From the IMG/VR virus record IMGVR_UViG_2529292751_000006, positions 32,001 through 96,000 of that record: a stretch of 64,000 nucleotides of DNA; one strand, given 5' to 3'. This DNA is from a virus (Duplodnaviria; Caudoviricetes). The position numbers and the translations under genes were made by a program. This document shows positions 26,150 to 54,038 of this stretch, one piece after another (the stretch's first letter is position 1; the number at the start of each line of letters is the position of its first letter). Under the pieces are notes generated by a model that saw nothing but the letters and a program-made list of their open reading frames with translations, had not been told where the DNA came from and made no database searches.

Positions 26150-27241
26150 TTATGCCCATGTTAATGAGTAGTTCTCTAGTTCCACATTAGCTGGCAATTC
26201 TATCTTCAATTTTAATTTCTTTCCTTTTGGGTGAGCTTTATCATCAAATATGAAAAGCTCCTCAGGTAAAATCGCTATCCAAGTTTCACCGTTATCACGA
26301 GAAATATAATAATTTATGTTCTTGGTGCTTTCAGGGATTTCTGCGCCCATCATTTCTATTTCGGCAATATTCGGTAAGGTATGCTCTCCAGAAATTTCAG
26401 TAATCAATAATCTATAATATTTAAAAGCACTTCTATTTTCAAGAATATACTCCTTCTTTTCTCTTTTATTAAATTTGGTGCCTTCAACCAAATGAAGATC
26501 GCTATATTCCTTTCCGTTAATACTCCCTTGGAATTTCCAGCTAACTGGATGAAAGCTATCAGAGTTCGCTTCACCTTTAATAGTATACTTGCCAATTACA
26601 GTTAATCCTGTGAATTTATAACCAATCCAGCTTGGATCAGGTCCGTAAACAAAATTAGCGCCCCATATTGAATCAACATTCCCATCAAAAGCCTCATATG
26701 CAGAAGTATGAGGTTTTTCTCCTTGATTTGTATTACTAGCAAACGCTTCTCCAGAAGGAGTTATATTGGAAGTCATTTTTGGGATTAAGTTCTTATCTGA
26801 AGATGCAGAGGCTTCTTTTACATTAGCGATTAAAATAAGCTTAGAAGGAATACTCTCCAACTCTTCAGTAGTTGTTTCAATAACACATTCTTCAGTTGCT
26901 ATTAATGACCCTTGCTCAGGATTATGAATATAACCTTTACTCTTTTCTGCATCAATTCCACTTACATCTAATAGATCATCAAACATCATATTTTGCATAT
27001 TGTATTTTAGAGTTTTAGCAATGCTATTTAATTTAACATGTGCCTTCATAATGTTTACCGCATCATGAACAATAAGCTTATTTGCTCTTAATGACAAACC
27101 TTCTAAGTATTTTTCTAAACTATCAATACGCTCTTTTACGTTTATAAATTTACCTTCTACACCAGAAGATAATGTTTGATTACGTAAGCTGGATTCTGCA
27201 TCTTTTGTTTTATTCGCAATACCATAACTAATAGTATCCAT
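26150..27241 (-). CDS. Fibre/adhesin subunit with discoidin (F5/8 type C-like) domain and Asp-box
   Basis: AFDGNVDSIW...WIGYKF...PVSWKFQGS...KYYRLLIT...IAEIEM; YISRDNGETW; N-terminal MDTISY family motif. Confidence 0.8.
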   Translation of the reverse strand: MDTISYGIANKTKDAESSLRNQTLSSGVEGKFINVKERIDSLEKYLEGLSLRANKLIVHDAVNIMKAHVKLNSIAKTLKYNMQNMMFDDLLDVSGIDAEKSKGYIHNPEQGSLIATEECVIETTTEELESIPSKLILIANVKEASASSDKNLIPKMTSNITPSGEAFASNTNQGEKPHTSAYEAFDGNVDSIWGANFVYGPDPSWIGYKFTGLTVIGKYTIKGEANSDSFHPVSWKFQGSINGKEYSDLHLVEGTKFNKREKKEYILENRSAFKYYRLLITEISGEHTLPNIAEIEMMGAEIPESTKNINYYISRDNGETWIAILPEELFIFDDKAHPKGKKLKLKIELPANVELENYSLTWA

Positions 27242-27256
27242 TTAGCACCATCCTTT

Positions 27257-28675
27257 CTATAGCCATGAGTATGAAATTGCATGAAGCTCTTTTCTGTTTT
27301 TTAGAACGACCTTAACAAGTAATTCTTTACCCTCTGGGAGTTTATCTAAACTAACAAGCTTATCTTTCTCAATCCTCATCCATGAATCATTATTACGAGA
27401 TACATAATATTCTAGACTATCTTCTACATTATCTTCAGTAACTGATGACAATAAAAACAGTGTAGGAATAGTCTCTATAGACTCAACGGTTGTAATCAAT
27501 ATAGCTGCCTGTGTCTTGTCCTTTGGCGTTACTTTATGATTTTGCTGATCATGAATAACATTCTTTGAATTTATCAAATCAATGCCAGTGCTATCACCAA
27601 AATCATCTATAATCATATCTTTCATGTTATAACGCTTTTTATCCAAAAGTGAATTTACTCTTAAATTATGTTTATTGAGATTTATATGGATATTCGTTTC
27701 TAAGTCTGATACACGATTAGGCAATGGACGATTCTGATAAGAGATTGCCACATTATTAAACTTATAGGCTTTATCAAGAACAGTGACTTGTATTTGTAAG
27801 TCCTTTGAAAACTTACTTACTATTTCAAAACTATCTCCTACATCAATAAAATCATCTGTTGTTTTTACAGACACTTTTACTTTGTCTCTTGGTAATTCTG
27901 CTGCTACATCATTATCAAAGTAAAACTCCAATTCATCAATATTAACAGGAAAGACTTCGCCCTCTTGGAGCCCATTTGTTTCTGAAACCCAAAGTACATA
28001 GGCCCTGTATTCTGAATTGTTTTTAAAAGAGTACTCTCTTTCTTCATACTCACCCCAGTTCACTTGATTTACTTGTTTATCAAGGTCAATCCATTCATTA
28101 GTACCTAACGGTAGCCCTCTAAATATCCAGCTCTTTGGTGATTGATTTACATACTGCGGATTATTTCGAGCTCTGATTTTATACTTATTTACAACTTTTG
28201 TTATAGTTGCCCACTCATACATAATATAATGTGGAAGAGCTGCATTCTCAGCTGATTGCCATCCTCTTCCTTCGTTTCTCATCCCATCAAATGCTTTAGC
28301 AGGATTATAGTTGTCACCAACGCTTCTAGATGAACTCGCACTAACAATTCCACCTTTTGCTAGGTTTTCGCTTTTTGACATTAATGATCCTGTAACTTTT
28401 AATGCTTCTAACTCCAATGCATCTTCTCCTAAATGAATTATATTAGAAGTCCAAACACCATTAGTGATGCTACCTTCTTGAGCTGAAACAACCTTAATTT
28501 TATCAATCAATCCTTGTCGCTTCTTTTCTAATTCATCTATACGAGCTTTAACATTAGCAAAGGTCCCTTTTACATCTTTGTCTCCATTTTTGTAGTCACC
28601 TGTACCTAGACGCTTATTCAGTGAATCTAGATTCTTCCTTCCTTGCATTGCTTTAGAATAACTTACAATATCCAT
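27257..28675 (-). CDS. Fibre/adhesin subunit with discoidin (F5/8 type C-like) domain
   Basis: NLAKGG...AFDG...W...PKSWIFRG...WIDLD...YRAYVLWV...IDELEF; N-terminal MDIVSY; C-terminal AISYSW. Confidence 0.8.
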   Translation of the reverse strand: MDIVSYSKAMQGRKNLDSLNKRLGTGDYKNGDKDVKGTFANVKARIDELEKKRQGLIDKIKVVSAQEGSITNGVWTSNIIHLGEDALELEALKVTGSLMSKSENLAKGGIVSASSSRSVGDNYNPAKAFDGMRNEGRGWQSAENAALPHYIMYEWATITKVVNKYKIRARNNPQYVNQSPKSWIFRGLPLGTNEWIDLDKQVNQVNWGEYEEREYSFKNNSEYRAYVLWVSETNGLQEGEVFPVNIDELEFYFDNDVAAELPRDKVKVSVKTTDDFIDVGDSFEIVSKFSKDLQIQVTVLDKAYKFNNVAISYQNRPLPNRVSDLETNIHINLNKHNLRVNSLLDKKRYNMKDMIIDDFGDSTGIDLINSKNVIHDQQNHKVTPKDKTQAAILITTVESIETIPTLFLLSSVTEDNVEDSLEYYVSRNNDSWMRIEKDKLVSLDKLPEGKELLVKVVLKNRKELHAISYSWL

Positions 28676-28696: not shown

Positions 28697-29755
28697 TTAA
28701 GCCCAAGCATAAGAGATTGCTGTTAAGGTTGCTGAATCTGTTGGCAAATTAATGCGGATTTTAAGTTGTTTACCAGATTGTGTTGAGATATCTATTACAT
28801 CCCCTGATTGAAAGGCATTCCAAGTACTTCCGTTATCTAAAGAATATTGGAATGTGCATTCTTGATGATCTGCTGTTATGACAAGTGTTTTGCGATATAC
28901 TGGTAACTCTTCTGTATCCGTCTCTATCATACCAGTTCCACGATATAATTTATCTTCTGAATTATAGAGATAATGCTGTGAAATGCTTGCTGCAAATTGC
29001 TTTTCAGTTTCTGTATAAGCTAGTATCTTAGAATTACTCGGGAGTGCTTTCCATTGTTCCTCTGTAATGCTATTTAATGAAAACATACCATGGTCTTTAA
29101 ACATTTCGTATGTGACTGGTGCTGTGCCTACATCTTCCCATATGCTATTAATTTTTTTGATTATATTTTCAGATTGAATGAGAAACATTTGGATATTAGG
29201 TATTTTCACGTCATTATATAATCCGACTGGATCATTTGATACATCTGCGAATTTAGAATCAATATTATTAATCTTGAACCCTGTTATTCCAAGTTCAGTA
29301 AATCTGACTTCGCTACTTCCTGACCCAATACTAATTCCCCCGTTATCTTTAAAGTAATAGCGAATACCATTACAAAATATCCAACAGTCAATAGGACCAT
29401 AAATCATTCTAACTTTGTCCTCATTGTTGTTTTCTACTCGTTTCCATTGATTTGTATCTGTATCACGGTATTCGACATAGGTAATAAAATCCTCCTTCCC
29501 AAGACCCTCATCAGGCCATCCATATGGTTTGATTTTTGTAATAAGAACAGGAAAATCAAACTCAATTCCCATCCAAGCAGAAGTGGCTTCTCTTGCAAAC
29601 CAAAAAGAACGATCAGAAGTACTTTTGTTCCCATCATTTAATGAAGACGGATTATAACTGCTGCTTGTAACCCATGGTGGTGATGATTTTGCTACGCCTA
29701 TTGTTTGCAAATTATCATCATATATTTCCTTGTCATTAAAATCAATACGTGACAT
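28697..29755 (-). CDS. Fibre/adhesin subunit: galactose-binding-like head, docking module, Asp-box tail
   Basis: LNDG...FW...WMGIEFD head; FLIQSENIIKK..W...FKDHGM module; YSLDNGSTW; C-terminal AISYAWA. Confidence 0.7.
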   Translation of the reverse strand: MSRIDFNDKEIYDDNLQTIGVAKSSPPWVTSSSYNPSSLNDGNKSTSDRSFWFAREATSAWMGIEFDFPVLITKIKPYGWPDEGLGKEDFITYVEYRDTDTNQWKRVENNNEDKVRMIYGPIDCWIFCNGIRYYFKDNGGISIGSGSSEVRFTELGITGFKINNIDSKFADVSNDPVGLYNDVKIPNIQMFLIQSENIIKKINSIWEDVGTAPVTYEMFKDHGMFSLNSITEEQWKALPSNSKILAYTETEKQFAASISQHYLYNSEDKLYRGTGMIETDTEELPVYRKTLVITADHQECTFQYSLDNGSTWNAFQSGDVIDISTQSGKQLKIRINLPTDSATLTAISYAWA

Positions 29756-30598
29756 TTATTTCACCTCTACTTTCTTTATATTTGTTATGGATGCAAGATT
29801 TAATTCAGACACCTTACCTGATCCTAATTTTACTGTATTAGAAAACGTAACTTCTCGCTTTTCTTCTCCTGCACCTGAAGAAGAAATAATTTTCATATTA
29901 TCCGTTTCAAACGTATCTATTACCATGTCATGCATTTTATATTTTTCTGATTTAAGTAATGCATTACTTTTGAAATTGAGTTTTGCCATATTAATTGCAT
30001 TAATTCGTTCTAGCTCTTTTAAACGCCCTTCAATCGTTAAGCTATTTGTTTCAATTTTAATGCTATGTAATTTGGGTGAGTTGCTTACAACTGGCACTGT
30101 CTCATATGATAATTTATCAATTAATAACGTATCTGTAACTGCATTTAAATCTAAATAATATGCTAAACGTAACTTCATTTCAGATAAAAAGGGCTTCCAT
30201 GCTACCTGTGTAATGCCATTAAATGTAGCAATATCCATACCTTTTGACTTTACATCATCTAGGTCATTTATATCAACAGAACTCCAAGATAATCCATTAA
30301 ATGCTTTCCATGTTGTGCCACTGTCATTAGACGCAATAATCTTGAGGACACTTTCATTTTGTACAGTTCCCGTTAATGTAAAGGATTTAATAGGCTTCTC
30401 AAATATCATATCTGTTTCTTGCAGAATTAATTGTTGCTTTGGTATAGCAGTTACATTTACAGACGCACTATTAATGCTTGTATCTTTCGTGAGAACTAGT
30501 ATTTTAATATTATCTGATTCTAATTGATTCCATGCTGATTCAGGTATTACACTTAAATCTGTCATACCATGTTGCTTAAATTCATCTACTGTGGGCAT
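29756..30598 (-). CDS. Fibre adaptor subunit with Asp-box
   Basis: Second ATG (30598) is correctly spaced from GGAGG (30606-30610). MPTVDEFKQHGM N-terminus; SNDSGTTW; KYKMHDMVID motif shared with the 363-aa and 472-aa proteins. Confidence 0.75.
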   Translation of the reverse strand: MPTVDEFKQHGMTDLSVIPESAWNQLESDNIKILVLTKDTSINSASVNVTAIPKQQLILQETDMIFEKPIKSFTLTGTVQNESVLKIIASNDSGTTWKAFNGLSWSSVDINDLDDVKSKGMDIATFNGITQVAWKPFLSEMKLRLAYYLDLNAVTDTLLIDKLSYETVPVVSNSPKLHSIKIETNSLTIEGRLKELERINAINMAKLNFKSNALLKSEKYKMHDMVIDTFETDNMKIISSSGAGEEKREVTFSNTVKLGSGKVSELNLASITNIKKVEVK

Positions 30599-30610
30599 AT
30601 TCATTCCTCC

Positions 30611-32374
30611 TTATATGGTTTGCCATGTGTTATTTTTATATGTTTTTATTATATCACCCTCTTGAATAAGTAATAATTGTTTTCGTACAGTAAATACTGC
30701 ACTTTCTTGATATGCAGATGCGGATGATTTATCATCTACTGCTCGTACTCTTATTCTAGCATTTGTAATATTCAATCCATCGGGAAGCTTATATTCTATT
30801 GATACATCCGTTATCTTTGCAACAATTGACACCCAAGAAGAACCGTTGTAGAAATCTACATCGTATGTAATTGCATCCCCCTCTGGATCCGTAGATGCAT
30901 CCCATGATACTGTAATGGTTTCACCTGTTAGGTATACACTATTTGTGCTTGCTGTTACTTTTAGATTTGTTGGCACTGTCGGTGGCATACTTCCTAATTC
31001 AACAAGTTGAATTTTAACATATCCATCACCAGATTTTCCTGTTGTTGCAGATGTGTTTTCCCCAGATATATAGGAACCACCACCGCCACCTCCATATCCA
31101 TCATTGTAACCGCCGCCACCTCCAGAGTAGCCACCACCGCCGCCGCCAGGATAATTACCATTACCACCACCACCGCCAAATCCACCTACACTTGCGTCAG
31201 AACGTGCATAACCACCCAGTCCACCATTAATAAAAGCTTGTCCACCTTGTACAATGCTATTTTTTCCATCCGCTTTCCCCCAGCTTACAACTGTCTGTGT
31301 TGCATATTCAACAGATTGTCCCTCACTATAAAAGCCACCACCGGATCCAGCAGGATAACGTCCAGAAGGAACTGATTTCCCTCCTTGTCCTGATGAACCT
31401 CCATACGGAGTCGTCGAACCGTAAGATGATGACCCAGAAGTAGATGTACTTCCATCTCTTCCGTATCCATTAGTATTATCATTAGAACCGCCACCACCAC
31501 CACCGCCGACAATCAATGGTATAGTCGATGATAAAACACTCCCTTTGGCTACGAAACTGCCACCACCGCCACCACCACCTTGCGGATAGCCCATGCCTTG
31601 CTGTCCTACTAATACTTGAATTACGTCACCTTGTTTTAGTTCAATTTTCCCACTAGCAATTGCACCATATCCACCCCTTGCAGTAAGGCTTGAATTTGAT
31701 GTTTTCCCACCTTGTGCGCCTGCTGCTGTAATCTGATATTTCCCACTCATAGGAACTATCCATTTCATAATTGTCCCTGAACGACCAGTAGACGTTGGGT
31801 TGAAATGAAGAGTATCATTTAATGCTAGTGCTTCTGGGTATTTAGTTACACCAGAATTTAAAGTATTAACTGTATGTGTTGTCATGATTTCCTCCACTTT
31901 GTAAGAGTAATAAGCCGAGAACATTGTTCCTGTTCTTCCCCAGTATACCGTTGCATTTGCAGGAACTACTACACGGATTGCTTCTCTTGTATCTAGTCTG
32001 CTGAAATATCGCTTTTCATTCAAGGTTCTTCCATCGTTATATGCAATTCCGACAATCGTCTTACAGTCTTGGAATCCACCTATTTGTGAGTCCCCATTCT
32101 CTAAGAGAAGAGAAAGCGGTTCGCCAGTATTATTTGTCAATCGAATAACATCCGGACTGCCCGGTGTAGTCCTAAATTCATTGGCAGGAACATATGTCGG
32201 TTCACTAGAATCGTTATAAGCAATTAATGCACCGCCTGTTGATATCTTCTGATATAATGGCTTCCCATCTCCATTCCTGTCGCCTGCTGTCCAGTGTCCA
32301 AACTTATCTGGACCTTTTTCTAAATCCTTAAAATAGAAAGTTTGATTAACAGGAATGCTTGATATGTTGCCCAT
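30611..32374 (-). CDS. Glycine-rich (polyglycine II-type) adhesin with FN3 domain and C-terminal docking motif; extra N-terminal domain
   Basis: WIVPMSGKYQITAAGAQGG...LVGQQG...GGGGGS...GGFGGGGG...GGGGGYSGG...GGGSY (ALK/LTK-like Gly-rich fold); WDASTDPEGDAITY FN3; LLIQEGDIIKTYKNNTW. Confidence 0.85.
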   Translation of the reverse strand: MGNISSIPVNQTFYFKDLEKGPDKFGHWTAGDRNGDGKPLYQKISTGGALIAYNDSSEPTYVPANEFRTTPGSPDVIRLTNNTGEPLSLLLENGDSQIGGFQDCKTIVGIAYNDGRTLNEKRYFSRLDTREAIRVVVPANATVYWGRTGTMFSAYYSYKVEEIMTTHTVNTLNSGVTKYPEALALNDTLHFNPTSTGRSGTIMKWIVPMSGKYQITAAGAQGGKTSNSSLTARGGYGAIASGKIELKQGDVIQVLVGQQGMGYPQGGGGGGGSFVAKGSVLSSTIPLIVGGGGGGGSNDNTNGYGRDGSTSTSGSSSYGSTTPYGGSSGQGGKSVPSGRYPAGSGGGFYSEGQSVEYATQTVVSWGKADGKNSIVQGGQAFINGGLGGYARSDASVGGFGGGGGNGNYPGGGGGGYSGGGGGYNDGYGGGGGGSYISGENTSATTGKSGDGYVKIQLVELGSMPPTVPTNLKVTASTNSVYLTGETITVSWDASTDPEGDAITYDVDFYNGSSWVSIVAKITDVSIEYKLPDGLNITNARIRVRAVDDKSSASAYQESAVFTVRKQLLLIQEGDIIKTYKNNTWQTI

Positions 32375-32388
32375 TTTATAACCTCCCT

Positions 32389-33669
32389 TTAAATAGATTC
32401 CCAGTTTCCATTTTTATAAGCCTTGCTTACATCTCCATCTTTAATTATATACAACTGCTTGGCTATCGTGAATACGTTACTTGATACATAATCAGATGCA
32501 TTATTTTCACCATCCATTGCTCGCACTCTAATCTGTGCTTTATCTGTTGCAATTGATGGAAGGATGCAGTCATACTTTGTGTCTGTAATTTTTGCTGAAA
32601 TATTTGACCATGCAGAGCCATTATAAAATTCAACCTCATATGTGATAGCACTTCCATCTGGGTCAGTTGATGCATCCCATGATACAGAAACTATTTCTCC
32701 TGACATGTATATATTATTTACACTTGATGTTACTTTTAGATTTGTCGGTACTGTTGGAGGAAGACCTTCAAGTTTTATTAATTGAATCGTGACATAACCA
32801 TTTGATGAATTATATCCTGCTGATGCAAATTCTGTAACTCTGTCAGGGCTTGCGTATGAACCGCCGCCACCTCCTCCTTCATTGTTACTTTTTCCACCTG
32901 ATCCACCAGAATATCCACCGCCACCTCCTCCTCCAAAATAACCGTTACCAGCACCGCCGCCAAATCCACCTTCGCCACCTGCACTCTGTGCAGATGCAAC
33001 TCCATATCCTCCTGTTCCACCTCTGCGAAAAGCTTTACCACCTTGAGTGTAACTGCTTGTAGGAGAAGATACAGTTTCCCAGCTTACTATTTTACCATCT
33101 GACCCATATGAAACAGTGTGCCCATCTGTATAGAATCCGCCGCCACCACCGCCAGGGCAAGATCCACAAGGTATAGAGTTTCCACCATTACCGTTAATAC
33201 CGCCAATTGGTTCGGATTGTCCAGGTGAAGTTCCTCCTGAATTAGATATTGTTCCAACTCCTGCGCTCGTAGTATAACCAGCGCCGCCACCACCACCAGC
33301 AATCATAATTGGAACTGAAGATGACAGGGACCCAAGTGCAGTGAAACTACCGCCACCGCCAGCTCCTCCATTATCATAAGAGCCGCCAGCATGACCTACT
33401 AGCACCTGAACAACTTCCCCTTTCTTTAAGGTTACTGTTCCAGTAGTAGCTATACCTTGACCACCAGAAAATCCTTTCTTAACAGCAGTTCCACCTACTG
33501 CACCTGCTACTGTAAATTTATACTTGCCAGCAGTCGGAACAGTCCATGCCATAATTACTCCATTACGACCATAATCCGTTCTATTAAATTGAAGAATATC
33601 ATTTACCAAAAGTGATGCAGGGTATTTTACTACTGCACTTCCAGCAGTGTTTACTGTATAAGTTGCCAT
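32389..33669 (-). CDS. Glycine-rich adhesin with FN3 and C-terminal docking motif (paralog)
   Basis: WTVPTAGKYKFTVAGAVGG...GGFGGG...GGGGYSGG; WDASTDPDG; LYIIKDGDVSKAYKNGNW. Confidence 0.85.
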   Translation of the reverse strand: MATYTVNTAGSAVVKYPASLLVNDILQFNRTDYGRNGVIMAWTVPTAGKYKFTVAGAVGGTAVKKGFSGGQGIATTGTVTLKKGEVVQVLVGHAGGSYDNGGAGGGGSFTALGSLSSSVPIMIAGGGGGAGYTTSAGVGTISNSGGTSPGQSEPIGGINGNGGNSIPCGSCPGGGGGGFYTDGHTVSYGSDGKIVSWETVSSPTSSYTQGGKAFRRGGTGGYGVASAQSAGGEGGFGGGAGNGYFGGGGGGGYSGGSGGKSNNEGGGGGGSYASPDRVTEFASAGYNSSNGYVTIQLIKLEGLPPTVPTNLKVTSSVNNIYMSGEIVSVSWDASTDPDGSAITYEVEFYNGSAWSNISAKITDTKYDCILPSIATDKAQIRVRAMDGENNASDYVSSNVFTIAKQLYIIKDGDVSKAYKNGNWESI

Positions 33670-34904
33670 ACTATCTTCTCCTTTCTAAATAACTGTCCAT
33701 ACTCCATCTTTATATGTTTTCACATTATCTCCGTCTCGCACTAATGCAAGTTGAGCGGCAACTGTAAACACATTACTCATTGTGTATGGAGATGCATCAT
33801 TTTCATTATCAAATGCTCGAACTCTAAATTGTGCATTGCTTGTATTACAAATTGGAAGTATACCGTCGTATGTTGAACCTGTAATATCTTTTGCAATGCT
33901 TACCCATGTAGAACCATTATAGAAATCTATTTCATATCTAATAGCATTTCCTTCAGGGTCTGTTGATGCAGTCCATTCCAATGATATTGTTTCATTGGAT
34001 AGATTCATACTATTAGAGACTGGCTGTTTTACAAGTGATGGATCTGTTGGTGGTTCATTTGCAGAGCCAATAAATGTAATTTGAACTAGACCATGACCTG
34101 ATTTGTAACCTCTTGTATTTGTTTGATTTTCTCCTATATTATAAGAACCGGCTCCAGCTGAAATAGGGGACCCCATATTACCTGCGCCGTGACCACCAGT
34201 ATATCCGCCACCACCGCCACCGCCAGAGTAGCCTCCTCCTCCTCCTCCGCCAAATCCACCATGACAATCGTTATATCCTTTTCCTCCAAGTCCTCCTGAA
34301 AGAAAACGAATACCGGCAGAGCCATAACTTTCACCATATTGGGTATCATTAAAGCCATTTGTATTAAATCCTGCCCCACCTGCTCCTCCTGTCCCTCCTC
34401 CATGACTCGCCCCATTGCCTTCACCTTTTGATGGCTTTCCTCCAGGAACTTCACTTGCCAGTTTTGAAATTTCTCCAGGATATCCGTCTAAATCCCTCCA
34501 AGTATAAGTGTATCCACCACCACCACCTGCAATTAAAAGTGGTAGATTTTCTTTTGCTATAAATGTTCCACCACCACCTCCTCCAATTTTATATGTAGAC
34601 TCACTATAAATTCCTCGATGCCCAATAAGAATACTGAGAACTTGATTTTTTCGCAAGATAAAGTCACCTGACATTAATGCTCCTTTACCTCCATTAGCAC
34701 CACCACCTTGAGCACCCATTGCTACAATTCGATATACACCATCATTAGGAATTGTCCATTTTAATATCGCTCCTGATTGCCCAGTACTAGTGTTGTAAAT
34801 ATTCATTACATCTCCACGCTTTAAGCTTGCTGGAAATGTTGCTGTGGCACTGCCTGACTGATTCACTGTATAAGTTGTCATGCTATCTTCTCTTTTCTAA
34901 ATAA
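33653..34904. repeat. 40-bp direct repeat (37/40 identical) at 33653..33692 and 34865..34904 spanning stop, SD and start of adjacent adhesin genes
   Basis: actgtataagttgccatactatcttctcctttctaaataa versus actgtataagttgtcatgctatcttctcttttctaaataa. Confidence 0.8.
33685..34881 (-). CDS. Glycine-rich adhesin with FN3 and C-terminal docking motif (paralog)
   Basis: WTIPNDGVYRIVAMGAQGG...GGFGGGGGGG...GGGGYTGG; WTASTDPEG; LALVRDGDNVKTYKDGVW. Confidence 0.85.
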   Translation of the reverse strand: MTTYTVNQSGSATATFPASLKRGDVMNIYNTSTGQSGAILKWTIPNDGVYRIVAMGAQGGGANGGKGALMSGDFILRKNQVLSILIGHRGIYSESTYKIGGGGGGTFIAKENLPLLIAGGGGGYTYTWRDLDGYPGEISKLASEVPGGKPSKGEGNGASHGGGTGGAGGAGFNTNGFNDTQYGESYGSAGIRFLSGGLGGKGYNDCHGGFGGGGGGGYSGGGGGGGYTGGHGAGNMGSPISAGAGSYNIGENQTNTRGYKSGHGLVQITFIGSANEPPTDPSLVKQPVSNSMNLSNETISLEWTASTDPEGNAIRYEIDFYNGSTWVSIAKDITGSTYDGILPICNTSNAQFRVRAFDNENDASPYTMSNVFTVAAQLALVRDGDNVKTYKDGVWTVI

Positions 34905-36243
34905 TTTTCCATATGCCATCTTTAAATGACTTCACTATGCTGCCGTCTTGCACTAATAAAAGACGAGTTGAGATGGTGAACGTATTACTTACTGTATAAT
35001 CTGATTTCCCTCCTTTATCATCACCAGCTCTCACACGAAACTGTGCTTTGTCTGTATCTAACTTTGGAAGAATAGCAGAGTAAGAATTTGCTGTTACATT
35101 TGACGCTACTGGACTCCAAATAGAACCATTATATAATTCTATCTCATATGAAATTGTATCCCCATCTGGGTCAGTAGATTCATCCCATTGAATCTCCACT
35201 GTTTCGCCAGAAAAATTTACACTATTGGTAGAAGGATGTTTTTTAAAAGATAACGGGTTTGAAGGAATTTCATTAATTTCTAATGAATAATACCCTGCTA
35301 TACTCGCTATATTATATTCGGGTTCACCAATACGAATAATATCCCCAGTTTTTATTTCAATAATAACTGCTTTCATACCACCGCCAGAAGGAGAATATGA
35401 TTTAATAACATTGTTTACTGATAAGAAGGCTTCTATCCCTAAATATGCCGAAGAAGGTCTTCCTCCAAAAATAAACATGTAGCGGCCACTCGGGTGATTC
35501 CATACTTTCTCTATATAAGATCCAGTGCTATTCTTCATTCCATTAACAACTGTAGGGCTAGAAGTATCTCCATAAAATGTAATGCAAGATTGAGCCGAAT
35601 CCCATTCCCCTAAAACTTGCTCATTTAATCCTGTATACTTTGACTTACCATTCATTACAAGGCATTGATTAAAAGTCGTAGACTTTTTCCAACCATCTGC
35701 GCTTAATTGAGTATCCGCATTTCCACTATAAGTTGGATAACTTAATCCGAATCTAATATCAGTTCCTTTGACAGTACCTAATGTATAATCAAACTTCCAC
35801 TCAGGAAACTGACCTGCAGATTTACCATACTTTCGACTAGCTGCTGCAATTATTAGATGCTCATTTGATAATCCATTAAATCGTTCCATACTTCCATGTG
35901 TGCCGTAATCAGTATTAGAAGTGTCTTGTGTTATAGTAGTGAGACTCAGTCTGTATGTTTTTCCTGAATACATTTTTACATCTTGAAAGTCTTTCCATAT
36001 GTTAGAGCTAACAGTTTTACGATTGTTATCTGTAATTGCCTTATCTTCCATACTTGAAATATCATAAATAACTTGTCCCGTTGACTCGTCACTAATTCTA
36101 AGGCGATAAATAATAGGGCCATCCCCACCGTTATACGTTTGAACATAGACCTTATTCATGATGATATTTATTTTAGGTGTCACCAATACATCGTAAGCGG
36201 CACCCCAGTTACCTTCTGGTCTAGGTACTAATAATGAAGGCAT
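34897..36243 (-). CDS. Adhesin with unrelated beta-rich head but the same FN3 and docking C-terminus
   Basis: No Gly-rich domain. C-terminal WDESTDPDGDTISYEIELYNGSIW...LLLVQDGSIVKSFKDGIW is homologous to the three downstream genes. Confidence 0.8.
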   Translation of the reverse strand: MPSLLVPRPEGNWGAAYDVLVTPKINIIMNKVYVQTYNGGDGPIIYRLRISDESTGQVIYDISSMEDKAITDNNRKTVSSNIWKDFQDVKMYSGKTYRLSLTTITQDTSNTDYGTHGSMERFNGLSNEHLIIAAASRKYGKSAGQFPEWKFDYTLGTVKGTDIRFGLSYPTYSGNADTQLSADGWKKSTTFNQCLVMNGKSKYTGLNEQVLGEWDSAQSCITFYGDTSSPTVVNGMKNSTGSYIEKVWNHPSGRYMFIFGGRPSSAYLGIEAFLSVNNVIKSYSPSGGGMKAVIIEIKTGDIIRIGEPEYNIASIAGYYSLEINEIPSNPLSFKKHPSTNSVNFSGETVEIQWDESTDPDGDTISYEIELYNGSIWSPVASNVTANSYSAILPKLDTDKAQFRVRAGDDKGGKSDYTVSNTFTISTRLLLVQDGSIVKSFKDGIWKII

Positions 36244-36294: not shown

Positions 36295-37344
36295 CTATAC
36301 TACTTCTATTTTTGTAATGGATTTATATTTTGTTCGGTCAATTGGTATTTCAAATAACACTCCATCTGTGTAATTATCATTCTTAGTACCATCTATTTTA
36401 TGAATGGCATTTACTTTTACGTCAGAGCCTACAGACGATAAAAATTCATTTAATACTAGTTTTGTTTCTGGATTTGCCTGGTCAAATTCAAATACCTTCT
36501 TCTCTCCCATTTCCGTGCCGCCATCAATGATTGCACGGAACTTCAAGAATCTTTTCTGTGGAAGTTTACTTGAATTAAATAGTGTATATGGACTAAATGT
36601 AATGCCATCATCTGATTCAGCGTATTCAACATCTACAGATCCTCCAAGCTTAAATGAAAGGTAGTTTGTATATCCAGATAAAGTTTGAAGTCCATAACGC
36701 TTATTCGAACCATTTTCCCAAGTGTTGATATAAAAAGGCATAGAGGTTGCTTTAGTGTCACTTGAATTTAATCCATATCCACTAAAATAGAATTCTATCT
36801 TATTTCTTTTAATGCGAATAGCAACAGGAAATCTGTTAGCTGAATTATTGTATTGTCCATAATATATCCAAATCAATGTAACATTTTCATCAGAATAATA
36901 TCTGCTATCAAATATTTTAGTATCGGATCCATTAGAACCTTCAAAATCAAATGATATAACAGGATAAAAGCTGCCATTCACGTAAGAGCGAGAAAAACCA
37001 GAATCGTAAAAAGTATTACTAAAGCTAGTAATTTCTTTATTGAAAAATTGTATACTACCTTCTGTGCTGATACCAATCCATTTAGTAAAAGGAAAATCCT
37101 TTGAAACCAAAGGTGTATGCATAATTAAATTCCCAATACTATCGTCACCCCATGCTGTGCCAAATTTTGCATAAGCCGGGTTAGTTGTGGTACCAAACAA
37201 ACCTAATGATATGTTTTCTTCATTAGCCCATTCAGCCATTTTATTATACGCAGATGTAGATTCTAAATCCGTACTTAATTCATAAGTGCCGCTCATGACT
37301 TTAGTACCTTTACTTGTCTCATATGAAAAAGGTATACTTACCAA
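36295..37344 (-). CDS. Fibre-associated beta-rich protein with Asp-box-like motif
   Basis: TTG start with SD GGAGGTG; YAESDDGITF; C-terminal KSITKIEVV resembles TNIKKVEVK of the adaptor. Confidence 0.7.
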   Translation of the reverse strand: MVSIPFSYETSKGTKVMSGTYELSTDLESTSAYNKMAEWANEENISLGLFGTTTNPAYAKFGTAWGDDSIGNLIMHTPLVSKDFPFTKWIGISTEGSIQFFNKEITSFSNTFYDSGFSRSYVNGSFYPVISFDFEGSNGSDTKIFDSRYYSDENVTLIWIYYGQYNNSANRFPVAIRIKRNKIEFYFSGYGLNSSDTKATSMPFYINTWENGSNKRYGLQTLSGYTNYLSFKLGGSVDVEYAESDDGITFSPYTLFNSSKLPQKRFLKFRAIIDGGTEMGEKKVFEFDQANPETKLVLNEFLSSVGSDVKVNAIHKIDGTKNDNYTDGVLFEIPIDRTKYKSITKIEVV

Positions 37345-37357
37345 ATGTCACACCTCC

Positions 37358-37699
37358 TTAATAATTCCTTTGAATTTTTACATCTAATATCTTTTGCATA
37401 CCGCTTCCTAAGTCTACTACTTCGGACTCCCATACTCCTGAGCCTACAAATGCTTGTGGCCCAATTTGACGGAGTTGAATACCATTATCTTTAAACTCTG
37501 CATCATTAAACTGACCTTTATTTAAATCTACTTCATATACTTCTTTTACTTGTAGGTTTGATGCTTGTGCTTCTATCCAATCTAACCTTTCATCAACAGA
37601 GTTAAATCGACATTCCGCTCCCTCTCCTACCACCATCTCATTGAGCTGCTTAATATCCTGAAAGACTTTACTTGCTTTACTGAAAGAAATAATCTCCAT
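37358..37699 (-). CDS. Short fibre N-terminal module (MDIISY family)
   Basis: MEIISFSKA...FNSVDERLD...GVWESEVVDLG matches the 472-aa protein MDIVSYSKA...FANVKARID...GVWTSNIIHLG. Confidence 0.75.
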   Translation of the reverse strand: MEIISFSKASKVFQDIKQLNEMVVGEGAECRFNSVDERLDWIEAQASNLQVKEVYEVDLNKGQFNDAEFKDNGIQLRQIGPQAFVGSGVWESEVVDLGSGMQKILDVKIQRNY

Positions 37700-40675: not shown

Positions 40676-43600
40676 TTACTTTTTGCACAGTGGATATGAA
40701 CAATGTAAATGATTCCAGTGTCCTTTCGGATCGTATTGCATTGCACTTTCTCCATATTTACCATTCATTTCTTGAATAATATCCCAATCACCAAACACTA
40801 ATCCTCTAAATCCAGCCTTTAAGCAACACTCTGCAAGCTTTCTAGCCTTTTCTTTATCAGTTCCATTTGGAAACCTCATTTTCCCATTAATAACTTTCAT
40901 TGTGTTTGGCGTATCAAGATCAGCAGCCCAACCAGTGCCGTGCCATTGATTATCACCCGGTCGCCATCCACTTGTGATATTAAAGCTATCTCCAGTAGCA
41001 GCTTTGTATAATTTAGCAACTTCGATAAGCAATTCACCTGTTGCTTTACGAACTTTACTTGTACCACCACCGCCTACAATTGTTAAGCCAAAATTACGCC
41101 CAGATAAATTATGTAAGTCAATGACATCTGGAGCACCACCACTTCCTAAGTGATATTTACTCTTTCCTTCTTTCCCTGTAACTAATGGACATGAACTTGC
41201 GCCACCAGATCCTTCACCAACAGCTCCACCACCTTTACATGCACCAGCAGGTAAATTGCCATCATAGTAACGTAAAACTCGTTCTACGTATTTCGAATCA
41301 CCATATCCTGGTGGAATTCTTGAGATTCTACCAACTTTTTTAACCATAGATTCTGAGAAGCTATAGGCTAATTCATACGTATATTTCCCACCTCGGCTTA
41401 TACAGTAATCAATAAATCCGCCGCCAAAATTGTATGATTGTAGAACAAGCTTAATGTCGCCTTTTGCTCTAGCTAACTGATTCTTGAAATGCGTTACACC
41501 TTGCTTGATACTTGCATCTACATTTTTTATATATCCAATTGGTTTACCCATGGACTCAGAAGACTGCATAACGTCAGGAAGCTTATGATAGTTTCCTCCT
41601 GATTCTTGCATTGTTAATGCTTTTAGTATTTCAGCGTATGATCCAATTCCTTGTACTTTTGCTTCAGCTTCAATTTTAGGGCCGATTACATCAAAGTATT
41701 TCGAAAGACCTTTTGCTTTGCCATCTGTCGGCACATCCCCTTCAGGAATACAAGTACCATCATCTTTGTTGCCAAAGAAGGATGTAACTTTGTCCCACAG
41801 ATCTTTAAACCAACCGGTAATTTTGTTTTTTATTTTATTCTTCCAATCTTCCCAAGTTGTTTTTTCTTCTTCATATGTTGCTTTGGTTTCTCTTTTCCCT
41901 AATAATTCTAATCTCTTATTGATTTGCTCTAAAGCTGCTTTACGATCTTTATCATAAAGCTCAGTAAGTTTTTCAAAAGCAGGTACTTGTTTTCTAAATG
42001 TATTATAAAAGCTACTTGCCATTTTGTTTAGATCAATAGGCTGTTCTGTAGGGCCATCTGATTTCATGCCCATTTGATCTTGAAGGTCATCATTTCTAAA
42101 TTGCCAAGCATCCACACCAATAAACCCTAGAAGGAATGCAGAAACATCATTTGTCATAAGCTGTTTCCAAATGTCAGGCGCATCTCCAATGACAGAACCC
42201 TTGTGTCCATTTATACCTGCTGTATACTCTAATCCGCTTTTATGCAGTGGGGATATTAAACATGCTTGTCTCATGAATAGCCATCTTTCAATAAATTCCC
42301 CTATTGTTGAAGAAATAATATGGACTCCTAATGCCTCTATAGCTAATCCTAACCAACCGACTGGGCCCGCCATTATGTGAGCACCTGTCCAAAGAGCAGT
42401 TACAACACCACGTCCACCCTTTAATACTTTACCTATAGACTTAGAACCTTTCGCAATCAGAGTGCTTCCTTTAGCTTTCATCTTTACATTTTTAAAACTA
42501 TTATAGCCAAACTCTTTAGAATTCTGGAATATATTCTTTAGATTGTTTGAACCTTCTTCTCCTGTTAACTTAGCAAGTTGTTCAAGCAATCCATTCTTAG
42601 ACCACCTTGCAATATCTTTGGAAGATACACCACCTTTTCTTAACTCATCGGCGGCGGCTATTTCTTTTCCATTTGGAGCCTTACCACCAGTTACTCGGTC
42701 TTGAAATTTTTGACCTAGTTTGCTCGTATTAAATCGCTCTTTCATCTTATCAAAACGATTTTTTGTAGAGGACCATAGAGCATTCATAATTGGTAAATGT
42801 CCTGCGTATTTAGAAGTTCTTAGTTTTTTGCGTAATGTATGTGCAATCAATGCGCTTCCTGCCAGTGCTTGTGCGCTTGCAAGCAATGTCATGGCACGGC
42901 GGTCTGTATTTACAACTACGACATCTGGCTTAATTAAAGTAATATAGCCTTGTTCATGATTCATAATTTGAGTCACTTCTTTTATTTCTGCTGGTCCAGC
43001 CATAGAATTAAACTCATCGTTAATCCACATTTGATCAAATGGCTTTACAGACGGATCGCCCATAACAGTTAAATAACCATCATACATATCTTTTACATAA
43101 TCTCTTAAACCTGCTGCTGTTATTTTTATAGCAACACCTTCATCGTAATACCACTTCGGAAGTTTATTTAACAATCCACCAATTAGAGGGATGTTTTGTA
43201 CCATGCGAATACCTTGTGCATTCATTGTAGTATCAATGTTTACAACTCTTTGTTTTTCAGGCCAAATATTTGTATCTACAAATACTGGAGAAGTAGTATC
43301 CATTTCCCCTTCATTCATATATACACCAACAGCTACGGTATACATATTGTCTTCAGTAGTTTCTATTGAATTATCAATAATACTTGTTGCACTATCATAA
43401 ACATGAAATTGTCTAAATGGTTTTAAGGCAGTTCCTTTTACTTCCTCACCATCAACAGTATAATCATAATGCAATGGGAAGTATGGTTTTCCTGAAAATA
43501 TAGTATTTCTAAAGCCAAATGGGTGAACCGCAACAATATGATCATCACCGACAGCTGCGCATATATTTAATACATCCCATACGGTCTTATCGAATAAGCC

Positions 43601-46600
43601 AATATTAATACCTGGCTCATCTGCTTGCCCGATGCCAAACGCATCCTTAATTTTATTCCACCAGCCATCATGTTCTTCATTTGTTAATCCAGTAGTTTGA
43701 TAGATATTCATATTGATTTCACCAACTGTTCGGCTATCTTTTCCAAACGTTGCTCCACCAATAAATCCACCGGCGACACCTCCAATAGCTGCGCCAATTG
43801 GTCCCCCAATTAGAAATCCTCCAGAAGCTCCTACTGCTGCTCCGCCAAAGAATCCTCCGAGTTCACCCCATCCTTGCGGAGCTTGCTGATGTCCAAAATG
43901 CATAATACCTAAACTATGATTTTGAAATTCATCATTAGATAAACCTGCCCAAAGGTTAGCAAAAAATCCTTTTGAATCAGTTAATAACTCATCTACAATT
44001 TCTGTTGGCTCTTGCTTAGAAAATAAAAATCCGCCTTCAGTGGTTTCATTCACATCTGCTCTAATTTTATTTGTTAATTCAATACCATCATCTTGCGCAA
44101 TCACTGTAATAGAAACCCCATTATTTTGAATAGAAGTTATTGTTCCATTCATAATCGTAGGCATACTCATAGGGTTTGAACCATATCCCATTCTGAAATG
44201 AATACGTGTACCTGTGCGTAGCATAATACTTTTATAATAATTTGCATTCCTATGACGAGAACGCTCTGCTTCTTTCGCTACAGCACCAGGCATAGTTAGC
44301 ATTTTAAAGACTTCACCCATACCGGTGTTTGTTAAATCCATTGCTTTTTCAGAATCATCTAACGTACCGTATATATTGCACATCTCTATCGCTAATGTAC
44401 TAGAAGCTTCTTTTCTACTGTTTGTATAAGTAATATCCATAACAGCTTGATAGTTAAAGAACTGATCTGACATTTTAACAGACCCCATATATTTCCCTTC
44501 ATCAATAAATGTAAGGAAGAATGTAGGAAATGCTCTTACTAACCTTCCACGCATATCATATTTCACCATGTCGTGTAACATGCCTGTATGTATTCGGTTA
44601 TCGTCTTTGAAGTCACTTTCTTTCATGTTTTGTTCTGGTTTTTTTGCATTTGGACCTGTGGTTTTAAAATCTTTCACAGGCAAGCCTTTTGTTTTTTCTT
44701 TAATTGTTTGATCAGACCATTCTTGATTATTAGAAGATGAATTCAACACTTTATTAATAATATCGATAACTTCTCTAGGTGGTCGTTTATTATCTTTTAA
44801 TAAATCAACATATTCTCGATCATAACCAAGATATAACATAATCACTCCAGCAAAGCGTACCTTTTGTTGGTCCCAACCATTATTGGCATTCAATCCAAAG
44901 CAAGCATATACATTTTCTTCGTTATACACTTTCTTATCACTGGCATTTGACTTGGCAAGCATTTGATTTAGTTCAGTGTAATATTGAGACATCTTACGTA
45001 CACCTTGTTCAACATTATATTCAATATTTTTACCAAGTAAATTTACATTAGAACCATACATCTTTCTGACTTTCATTATCCCAATGTATTCTCCATCTAT
45101 AGAGCCATCGTTATTTACATAGTATTTAAAGTTTTTATTCATCATAGTAGGAGAACTTGTTTTGCTATTTACTACTTTATCTTGCTTTGTATTTGTTCCT
45201 ACATCATAGAATTGTTTTAATTCAGAATCTAGAGCCTTAGCAAATGCAACTGTAAAGTTTTGATTAATATTAAACTGTTGTGATTTTTCCCTAATAAGAG
45301 CTTCTGCTTGAGCTACAGAAAGTTTACTTTTATCAACAAGTTCTTCTGGAATAGCGCTATAACTAACTTTATTCTTACCTACTGCATCTTCATATTCTTT
45401 CCTGCTATTCTTTAACTCTTCAGATGTAATGTCATTTACTTTCTCAATATTACCACCATTAATGCTTGCTTCTCCGCCTTTACCATCCCTTAATACTGTT
45501 TGATAATTTTGTTGTGCTGCATTAACCAAGTCCTCAAAGAATAACGTCCCTTTTTTATATGTAATAAAAAAGTCAGGATCTACAAACACACCGTTATTAT
45601 AATTTTCTACTTTAAAGCCAGCTTCTTCAACTTCTCCATAAGTAGGGAGCTCTAAATCAGGATATACTTCAGCTGCTGCAAAGAACTTACGTACAGCTTC
45701 TTCATAAACAGCTTGCTTTTCTGCATCCGCTTGAACGTTAGAACCTCCAAGGAATGATTTCAGTCCAGTCCATGCTTCTTTTGCTGCGGGTCGATCAGCA
45801 ACGAATTGAGCCCATCTATTTAGTGGATTATCACCTATTCCATCCTCAAACATAGTAGCTGGGTTTAAGCTTGTCAGAAGACTCAAGATCCCTTGGTTTT
45901 CATATTGATTTATATCCCACTTTGCAGTTTCAGATAACCACTTCACTTCATTCATTTTACGTTCTGCTCGATTGTATGCAATCATTGTCAAAGTGACCTC
46001 AAATACACCTGGCATTCCTTGCACAGTATTTGTTTGCATGTCTTCGATTGTTATATTTTTTATGCCAAATAATCTTGCGAGTTGACTATCAAACTCAAGG
46101 AAACCATTTGCCATTTCTTTGTGATATGTGCGAATCAGATAAGATGATCTTCTTATTAACGATTCTAAGCTTGCAATAGATTCCATGTCATGAGTAGTAA
46201 ACCTTGCCATGATTATTGTATCTTGAGAACCCATATACTGATGGGTAGGAGATTCATCATGTTGTAATTGAGCGGCAGTAATTGTGTTTTCAAACCCTAT
46301 AGATAAATCTGTTAGCGTTAAATTGGGTATATCCCATTCTTCATAGCCTACATCATATTCAAACATAGCTTTTTCATAAGTAGCATCTAAATCTTTATTG
46401 AATTGCTCCTCTAGCCCCTCTGCACCCCAAAAATCTTCTTTCTTTCCTTCGATATATTTCTTAATCATCTTTTTCTTATCAGAATTCCACTTTTTCATAT
46501 AAACCAAATCATCTTCAGCAGCTATTCTAAATTTAAAATTATTATCTAGCTCTTTATATAATGGCTCATAATAAGAGCGGAATGATTTTGCATTCTGAGG

Positions 46601-47095: not shown

Positions 47096-47106
47096 AATCG
47101 TTCCTC

Positions 47107-54024: not shown

Positions 54025-54038
54025 AAAAACACATCCTT

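Follow-up and report, generated by a model that had tools for sequence, protein, structure and literature searches.

A fission-split fibre protein and a candidate C-terminal docking hairpin common to four head proteins in a large Bacillus cereus-group phage or plasmid-prophage

Organization of the fibre locus

We analysed a stretch of 64,000 nucleotides (hereafter the window) that comprises bases 32001-96000 of a 120,785-bp virus record with a G+C content of 34.9% (IMGVR_UViG_2529292751_000006); the coordinates given below are window positions. The window harbours a fibre region with all its genes on the minus strand, in the order 258-, 113- and 349-residue proteins, four proteins of 448, 398, 426 and 587 residues that we call heads 1 to 4, a 282-residue adaptor, and proteins of 352, 472 and 363 residues. 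We focused on the C-terminal ends of the heads and the start of the adaptor, which are joined in a single chain in most relatives of the adaptor (Table 1). The region is flanked by a 2139-residue protein and further very large open reading frames (ORFs), and the 363-residue protein contains a discoidin (F5/8 type C) domain according to Pfam. In the plasmid-prophage pG9842_140, the ortholog of the 2139-residue protein is annotated as 'lysozyme family protein' and is followed by a baseplate J/gp47 family protein, annotations that identify the region as a tail/baseplate receptor-binding cluster. The locus represents the receptor-binding module of a large phage or plasmid-prophage of the Bacillus cereus group.

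Table 1. Positions of the heads, hairpins, adaptor and related features in the window. FN3, fibronectin type III; GRD, glycine-rich domain.
Feature	Position	Strand	Description
Head 1, 448 aa	34897..36243	(-)	N-terminal head of no known family, FN3 fold, terminal hairpin; stop TAG
Head 2, 398 aa	33685..34881	(-)	Gly-rich (ALK/LTK-GRD-like) head, FN3, terminal hairpin; stop TAG
Head 3, 426 aa	32389..33669	(-)	Gly-rich head, FN3, terminal hairpin; stop TAA
Head 4, 587 aa	30611..32374	(-)	N-terminal extension of ~163 aa, Gly-rich head, FN3, adaptor-type hairpin; stop TAA, in frame with the adaptor
Hairpin of head 1	34900..34962	(-)	End-anchored pattern
Hairpin of head 2	33688..33750	(-)	End-anchored pattern
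Hairpin of head 3	32392..32454	(-)	End-anchored pattern
Hairpin of head 4 (LLLIQEGDIIKTYKNNTWQTI)	30614..30676	(-)	DNA like that of the in-chain hairpin in fused alleles and unlike that of orthologous free heads
Junction TAA-GGA-GGA-ATG-AAT-ATG	30596..30613	(-)	Stop, AAGGAGG Shine-Dalgarno sequence overlapping the stop, two in-frame ATGs
Adaptor, 282 aa from the first ATG (280 aa from MPTVDEF)	29756..30604	(-)	phrog_5811 match; model
Parts of the adaptor			N-terminal helix-helix-strand remnant, beta-sandwich with Asp-box, long helix, C-terminal tail
Proposed acceptor, adaptor residues 3-38 (helices and strand KILVLT)	30491..30598	(-)	Alignment; model of a fused relative
352-aa protein	28697..29755	(-)	Different N-terminal head, own degenerate hairpin and acceptor in one chain

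Four heads closed by the same hairpin

The four heads differ in their N-termini, and their conserved part is C-terminal. The 398-, 426- and 587-residue heads match phrog_22713 over its full length (positions 1-401), with E values of 1e-126 to 1e-150 (2.8e-148 for head 2 and 9.2e-126 for head 3). Head 1 matches positions 278-401 of the same profile only, with its residues 324-448. A preliminary description of this DNA, made from the sequence alone, had distinguished three glycine-rich heads and an unrelated one. The family matches agree with this division, but the gathering cut-off of PF12810 (ALK/LTK glycine-rich domain; 24.5 bits) is passed by the 587-residue head only, with 27.9 bits; head 2 stays below it with 20.6 bits, and a Pfam scan of head 3 gave no match at E<=0.01. 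ALK/LTK chains of the PDB match head 4 weakly, over ~70 residues (E 4e-4 to 2e-3).

The FN3 fold announced in that description was borne out for head 1 by structure prediction, although Pfam did not call fn3 in any head at E<=0.01. The AlphaFold2 model of residues 325-448 of head 1 has a mean predicted local distance difference test (pLDDT) of 93 and a predicted template modelling score (pTM) of 0.80, with pLDDT values of 92-97 for its FN3 part. Foldseek returned 49 PDB matches to this model at E<=0.001, the top ones being FN3 folds aligned over ~100 of the 124 columns.

After FN3, a 21-residue beta-meander, hereafter the hairpin, closes all four heads. It ends with W-x-x-I and is directly followed by the stop codon, the C-termini of heads 1 to 4 being ...LLLVQDGSIVKSFKDGIWKII, ...LALVRDGDNVKTYKDGVWTVI, ...LYIIKDGDVSKAYKNGNWESI and ...LLLIQEGDIIKTYKNNTWQTI, respectively. 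The terminal motif originally proposed is thus present before the stop in all four heads, except that its first 'L' is L, A, Y and L; the conserved Leu lies one residue upstream. In the model of head 1, the hairpin is a three-stranded meander (E106-109, E112-117, E120-123) with pLDDT values of 83-84. Among the open segments of at least 150 residues in the window, an end-anchored pattern retrieved exactly these four proteins. When the six frames of the 120,785-bp genome were scanned, a strict hairpin pattern matched in head genes only (two of the four heads), and the 'GM' motif was found solely in the 282- and 352-residue proteins.

We then compared hairpins that end a free head, i.e. one that is separately encoded, with hairpins that lie within a chain. 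The 28 distinct free and 22 in-chain hairpins of identical spacing follow the same pattern, L-[IV]-x-D-G-x-x-x-K-x-[YF]-x4-W-x-x-[IV]. W-x-x-[IVL], optionally plus a Q, closes the chain in 19 of 19 and 19 of 20 database relatives of the FN3-hairpin end, and the sole exception among the 20 free-head relatives is annotated as partial. None of the 22 FN3-hairpin relatives of 322-1028 residues continues into an adaptor. The protein sequences of the hairpins are conserved, against a divergence of ~50% among the FN3 domains; the hairpin is under purifying conservation. Since a 223-residue free head encoded on a plasmid of strain L1 (locus L012) has no FN3, the hairpin is the sole element common to all free heads. 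The hairpins that adjoin an adaptor (DGDIIKTY...) are nevertheless a sequence class of their own, separate from the hairpins of the remaining free heads.

The adaptor appears to lack the beginning of its first domain

The adaptor matches positions 290-571 of the 571 positions of phrog_5811, a family of unknown function (E 4.7e-155), and has no counterpart to the N-terminal half of this profile. The 352-residue protein matches positions 265-402 of this profile, and a hidden Markov model of the N-terminal domain (N-domain) of the adaptor matches its residues 213-331 (E 5e-11). The two pieces had been said to be fused in the 352-residue protein, and the stretch quoted for this is indeed present in its translation.

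A HMMER scan of 1.84 billion representatives yielded 538 relatives of the adaptor at E<=0.001. Among the 150 of these 538 matches that were listed, the adaptor match is internal to a longer protein in nearly all. We aligned 104 adaptor homologues; in 99 of them, the chain has at least a W-x-x-[IV]-type strand immediately before the helices. The full hairpin is recognized by a regular expression in 54 of the 104; on reading, the other 45 rows show a strand with Trp or another aromatic residue followed by an x-x-[IVL]-type sequence or, in the single case of P0019, a KKIL strand. Only five chains start at the helices, namely the window adaptor, P0018, P0023, P0050 and P0115, and in three others (P0034, P0094 and P0141) the chain opens with the hairpin and has no head. 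The presence of the strand in the chain of the aligned homologues and the existence of hairpin-first, headless homologues argue that the hairpin belongs to the first domain of the adaptor, not to the head. The heads found upstream of in-chain adaptors are of the discoidin, LamG, RCC1-like and Gly-rich types.

We modelled a natural fused segment, hairpin plus adaptor, of 311 residues (P0209) with AlphaFold2 and a 106-row alignment. The mean pLDDT is 83.6, and successive 10-residue means from the hairpin through the linker and the two helices to the next strand are 78, 95, 89, 93, 93, 94 and 91. The two fragments, contiguous in one chain in the homologues, are thus modelled confidently across the position of the junction. 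The predicted elements are three strands (E6-11, E14-19, E22-25), two helices and a strand that correspond to the acceptor (H35-41, H51-54, E62-67; pLDDT 91-94), a beta-sandwich and a long helix (220-247). Foldseek found no PDB match to this model at E<=0.001. VIA-align wide gave a best Z of 5.6, confined to residues 81-204 and corresponding to a generic beta-sandwich; hence, the first ~70 residues appear to form a small domain of their own, built from three strands, two helices and a further strand. The window adaptor would appear to keep only the helices and the last strand of this domain. A PDB sequence search with the adaptor profile gave only matches to Asp-box sialidases, at E>=0.11. We also compared two putative internal repeats of the adaptor N-domain by BLASTP, which gave a non-significant E value of 0.087, so that the idea of an internal duplication rests on secondary structure alone.

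The earlier proposal of a split domain is therefore upheld in that the C-terminus of the head and the N-terminus of the adaptor are normally one chain, in 99 of 104 homologues and in the relatives described below that are fused at the very codon of the stop. These comparisons give good support to the view that the tail of the head and the start of the adaptor make up a single structural unit, of which each is one half.

A single codon separates split from fused alleles

As the preliminary description had reported, head 4 and the adaptor are in frame across the junction (ATA TAA GGA GGA ATG AAT ATG CCC), with the stop at 30613..30611. The second ATG (MPTVDEF, 30598) lies 7 nt after AAGGAGG and corresponds to the RefSeq start of the pG9842_140 ortholog; it is the likely start of the adaptor, rather than the first ATG. 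The 120,785-bp genome has 18 AAGGAGG sites, of which 11 precede ORFs of at least 60 residues and none is inside a longer in-frame ORF. AAGGAGG followed by ATG reads as the signature of a real ribosome-binding site.

The junction codon varies among relatives. It is TAA in the window, in pG9842_140 (L010; behind a 425-residue head) and in contigs X5 and X10, TAG with an extra in-frame AAC behind the 223-residue head of the strain L1 plasmid, GAA (Glu) in plasmid p1 of B. thuringiensis lyx16 (L001/L002) and CAA (Gln) in plasmid pd of B. thuringiensis Gxmzu777-1 (L011). In lyx16, the adaptor is 91-92% identical to that of the window, and each of the two fibre clusters comprises free heads followed by a fused gene, which codes for a Gly-rich head, the hairpin, Glu and then Gly-Gly-Met-Asn-Met-Pro-Thr-Val... 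(junction DNA GAA-GGA-GG[GA]-ATG-AAT-ATG). The hairpin before the CAA codon in Gxmzu777-1 and the hairpin of the split form in pG9842_140 have the same sequence. A canonical ribosome-binding site and an ATG are present in the linker of every close relative, split or fused. Both protein lengths are common: members of the P0018 cluster have 280 residues in 12 of 15 cases and those of the P0001 cluster 546 residues in 9 of 13, and 280-residue adaptors are annotated in many B. cereus-group genomes.

We considered that the stop might be an assembly error. This was ruled out, as TAA is found on three independent contigs; X5 and X10, which come from two runs of different studies, span the site with no difference at 30611-30613, and the probable source run agrees on the stop at a depth of 154. 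The series of TAA, TAG, GAA and CAA codons and the abundance of both protein forms indicate that the stop is real, stable and recurrent, and that the covalent link is evidently optional. Thus, the chain is split between hairpin and helices, the split recurs and it toggles with fused alleles. Head 4 and the adaptor are the products of a real gene fission. The occurrence of two proteins as a fusion in some genomes and as separate products in others is a classic sign of interacting partners ('Rosetta stone'), and because of this toggling head 4 likely still associates with the adaptor.

In metagenome contig X7, 451 other letters stand in place of 41 nt corresponding to window positions 30597-30639 (end of the hairpin, stop and start of the adaptor); they may represent a further variant of the junction or the insertion of a small head. 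At locus L011 (10090-10530), the CAA-fused adaptor gene is truncated, with ~140 residues of the adaptor left, and the genes that come next are unrelated ones for sporulation; rearrangement or decay of this prophage copy seems to have taken place.

The arrangement around a single stop also raised the idea, already put forward in the preliminary description for the last head, that the functional product is a fused head-adaptor protein of 870 residues made at a low level by readthrough of TAA, or that the split is a transient nonsense allele and hence a defect. Such a product would span TWQTI-X-GGMNMPTVDEFK, the 3-nt insertion of the strain L1 plasmid keeps the frame, and the sense alleles GAA and CAA exist. 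However, a single indel keeps the frame in one of three cases by chance alone, no bacterial stop is stronger than TAA, and a stop, either TAA or TAG, is present in the window, in pG9842_140, in the strain L1 plasmid and in the two further contigs. Moreover, the stop is followed by a perfect Shine-Dalgarno sequence and an ATG, 280-residue adaptors are widely annotated as such, no fusion of an FN3-type head with an adaptor occurs among the 22 relatives, and heads 1 to 3 precede other head genes, not the adaptor. We consider readthrough or a transient defect very improbable.

Exchange and distribution of the heads

The head that precedes the adaptor differs between the window, L010, L011, L012 and L001, whereas the adaptor is the same. 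In addition, the DNA of head 4 is chimeric: its FN3 end aligns with the free heads of lyx16 and the part from ATTCAAGA on with the fused gene's hairpin, the breakpoint lying between ...CTT and ATTCAAGA. Therefore, heads are exchanged by recombination at the boundary between FN3 and the hairpin. Both observations would fit a model in which the free heads are a reservoir of recombination cassettes that swap over evolution into the slot linked to the adaptor, so that only the adaptor-adjacent head is used on the virion. Yet the free heads are all intact ORFs with their own Shine-Dalgarno sequence and ATG in one co-oriented operon, and the conservation of the hairpin proteins relative to the divergent FN3 domains fits selected, expressed proteins, not silent DNA. 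A mere reservoir thus appears improbable.

The comparison of heads among related elements, suggested at the outset, confirmed that their number and type vary; it also revealed the situation of lyx16, with free heads and only fused adaptors, which is discussed below. The whole fibre cluster is tandemly duplicated in the plasmid-prophages of 140-145 kb (p1 of lyx16 and pG9842_140), with different head sets in the two copies. The duplicated unit comprises genes for 258- and 112-residue proteins, a 349-like protein, heads, the adaptor, and 352-, 472- and 363-like proteins; the window has a single copy.

In five distant loci, from Alicyclobacillus, Paenibacillus and three IMG/VR contigs (L005, L008 and L013-L015), we found fused proteins only and no free hairpin-terminated heads. 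The free-head arrangement thus looks like an innovation of the B. cereus-group lineage, although the distant split adaptors P0023 and P0050 (36% and 29% identity, respectively) start at the same point too. Megablast of the fibre region against a phage collection gave no match, tblastn of the adaptor gave distant matches only, and a search of viral contigs with the adaptor gave no match.

Proposed docking of the heads on the adaptor

We propose the following scenario. The ancestral fibre would have been one chain, composed of a variable head, the three-stranded meander, two helices and a strand, the beta-sandwich, the long helix and the C-terminal tail. In this lineage, the chain has been cut exactly between the hairpin and the helices; a stop codon, a ribosome-binding site and an ATG are left in the linker, and the products are one head-less adaptor and several separately translated heads that share only the hairpin. 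Most likely, the C-terminal hairpin of a head would then lie non-covalently on the N-terminal helix-helix-strand remnant of the adaptor, a case of fragment complementation in which the docked hairpin would rebuild the small domain of the fused relatives. The several heads would use this kind of site in common or in competition, and virions would thereby acquire more than one receptor specificity. Taken as a whole, a split chain with heads that dock by their hairpins is the best explanation that we can offer, and we give it a probability of about one half. Physical docking of the heads on the adaptor is a prediction from the evolutionary pattern and the model of the fused relative. Heads 1 to 3 may use the same acceptor as head 4, and a socket common to all heads is plausible.

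Several observations weigh against this scenario. First, lyx16 has nine free heads and only two adaptors, both fused with their own hairpin. In its whole 5.4-Mb genome, the adaptor N-domain was found at E<=0.01 only in these two fused adaptors and in two proteins that have their own hairpin. Free heads therefore need no separately encoded orphan acceptor. Second, in P0019, with an adaptor 74% identical to that of the window, a discoidin head is joined to the helices without a full hairpin; hence, the first two strands of the hairpin are not essential for the existence of the adaptor. Third, the hairpin may not dangle from the head, as it is modelled as an ordered meander on FN3 alone (pLDDT 83-84). 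Fourth, it is only the confidence and the secondary structure of the fused model that suggest packing of the hairpin on the helices. In a mutual-information scan, 4 of the top 10 pairs link strand 2 of the hairpin to helix 1, but pairs between hairpin and acceptor account for ~43% of all pairs in any case, and there is no enrichment. Finally, the contigs of P0023 and P0050 were not found in viral contigs, the phage collection or genome contigs.

For lyx16, this leaves two possibilities: free heads that bind elsewhere, or fused genes from which a head-less adaptor is made in addition. The latter is plausible, because AAGGAGG and ATG are retained inside the fused frames; in the phage of the window, such sites are otherwise rare and located at gene starts. 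Fused alleles may thus also produce a short adaptor from the internal start.

The first possibility leads to the strongest competitor, namely that fission occurred without shared docking: the split between head 4 and the adaptor would be tolerated or neutral, whether or not the two products stay together, and heads 1 to 3, like the many free heads of relatives, would attach elsewhere on the baseplate or fibre by means of their FN3-hairpin unit. Besides the lyx16 genome, with nine free heads, fused adaptors only and no further copy of the N-domain than those named above, this is consistent with the prediction that the FN3-hairpin unit is ordered by itself (pTM 0.80) and with the distinct class of adaptor-adjoining hairpins. 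However, no alternative acceptor was found, and the hairpin is common to every free head, including the one without FN3. Moreover, its conserved positions are those of the in-chain hairpins located beside the helices in ~100 homologues. We consider this explanation rather less likely than docking on the adaptor remnant.

The docking scenario can be extended to a more specific form, in which the meander was cut from the first domain of the adaptor and copied onto unrelated heads as a plug for a universal socket, fused alleles also make a head-less adaptor, and virions carry mixed, combinatorial sets of heads with a C-terminal polarity of attachment. We regard this extended form as tentative and less likely than not. 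If docking is true, it would explain how the lineage carries three to six heads per fibre cluster, shuffled by recombination at the hairpin, and the hairpin would represent a minimal natural 'plug' by which proteins can be attached to a virion. The TAA, TAG, GAA and CAA alleles at one codon are a natural experiment on the importance of the covalent link.

Relation to known systems

The attachment of several receptor-binding proteins to one adaptor is a known phage route to a wider host range. In SP6/K1-5/K1E-like podophages, the gp37 adaptor is part of a multi-tailspike system, and CBA120/G7C-like phages have a branched tailspike protein (TSP) complex. As in these systems, the anchor is separated here from the receptor-binding part, and side-by-side alternatives would widen or switch specificity. 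In contrast, their docking element is a whole N-terminal domain, whereas the candidate element described here is C-terminal, has ~21 residues and looks like a piece of the first domain of the adaptor. Relative to the known adaptor-based systems with multiple receptor-binding proteins, the arrangement thus has the reverse polarity, with a candidate docking element that derives from a domain of the adaptor itself. Neither the sequences nor the Pfam scan revealed similarity to anchors of the SP6/K1-5/CBA120 type. The heads lack the conserved N-terminal anchor domain by which the CBA120 and K1-5 systems are recognized, but they might still work in a similar manner.

The gp38 of T2/S16-type phages is a separately encoded glycine-rich adhesin of the polyglycine-II type, of which the N-terminal domain sits on the C-terminus of gp37, with one gp38 per fibre. 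Separate glycine-rich adhesins and non-covalent docking at the distal end of the fibre are features that the present locus would share, docking being predicted here. Unlike gp38, there are several alternative heads, and docking is predicted to be C-terminal; the match of the heads to the ALK/LTK glycine-rich domain is weak. In chaperone-usher pili, pilins lack one immunoglobulin strand and receive an N-terminal extension of another subunit by donor-strand complementation. The likeness is that of an incomplete fold completed by one or more beta-strands from another polypeptide, which in our case would be a three-stranded meander added onto a helix-helix-strand remnant; there is no homology between the two systems.

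The closest comparison is with the fused phrog_5811 fibres of Bacillus, Paenibacillus, Priestia, Alicyclobacillus and Oceanobacillus prophages and of phage contigs of ~200 kb. They have the same adaptor domains, hairpin and linker position, but they are single chains, with a discoidin, LamG or Gly-rich head followed by the hairpin and the adaptor. A literature search at the level of abstracts revealed no description of so small a C-terminal docking tag split from the adaptor's own domain. Paralogous virion-anchor domains are described for phage 0305phi8-36 (PMC2147016); the present arrangement does not appear in the parts of that paper that were consulted.

Additional features of the region

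Six very large ORFs (1890, 1669, 2392, 2139, 2305 and 2030 residues) lie on the same strand around the fibre cluster, at 1450-22887 and 40676-60131. Between 26150 and 37344, the reading frame is kept at seven of eight successive junctions, from the 349- to the 363-residue gene, and at several of these a single stop separates the genes, e.g. WKII-stop-KREDSMTTY and VWTVI-stop-KGEDSMATY. Common ancestry of duplicated spacers partly explains these in-frame junctions, and some of the junctions between heads in lyx16 are out of frame.

Similar N-terminal motifs are found in three proteins, MDIVSYSKAM.. (27257-28675), MDTISYGIANK.. (26150-27241) and MEIISFSKASK.. (37358-37699). The adaptor and the 472- and 363-residue proteins have a helical segment in common (...LTIEGRLKELERINAINMAKLNFKSNALL..KY.MHDMVIDTF...), located at residues ~172-235 of the adaptor (29756-30604), ~295-413 of the 472-residue protein (27257-28675) and ~60-140, in the N-terminal part, of the 363-residue protein (26150-27241). 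It is visible as cross-matches among phrog_5811, phrog_38477 and phrog_31511 and could be a common oligomerization or attachment helix, possibly of a hetero-oligomer. Lastly, the C-terminal strands of the 349-residue protein (36295-37344; ...YKSITKIEVV) and of the adaptor (29756-29830; ...ASITNIKKVEVK) are similar by eye, and the C-termini of their relatives are alike too (...SITKIEVV and ...LKKVEVV); these strands may represent a second C-terminal docking element.

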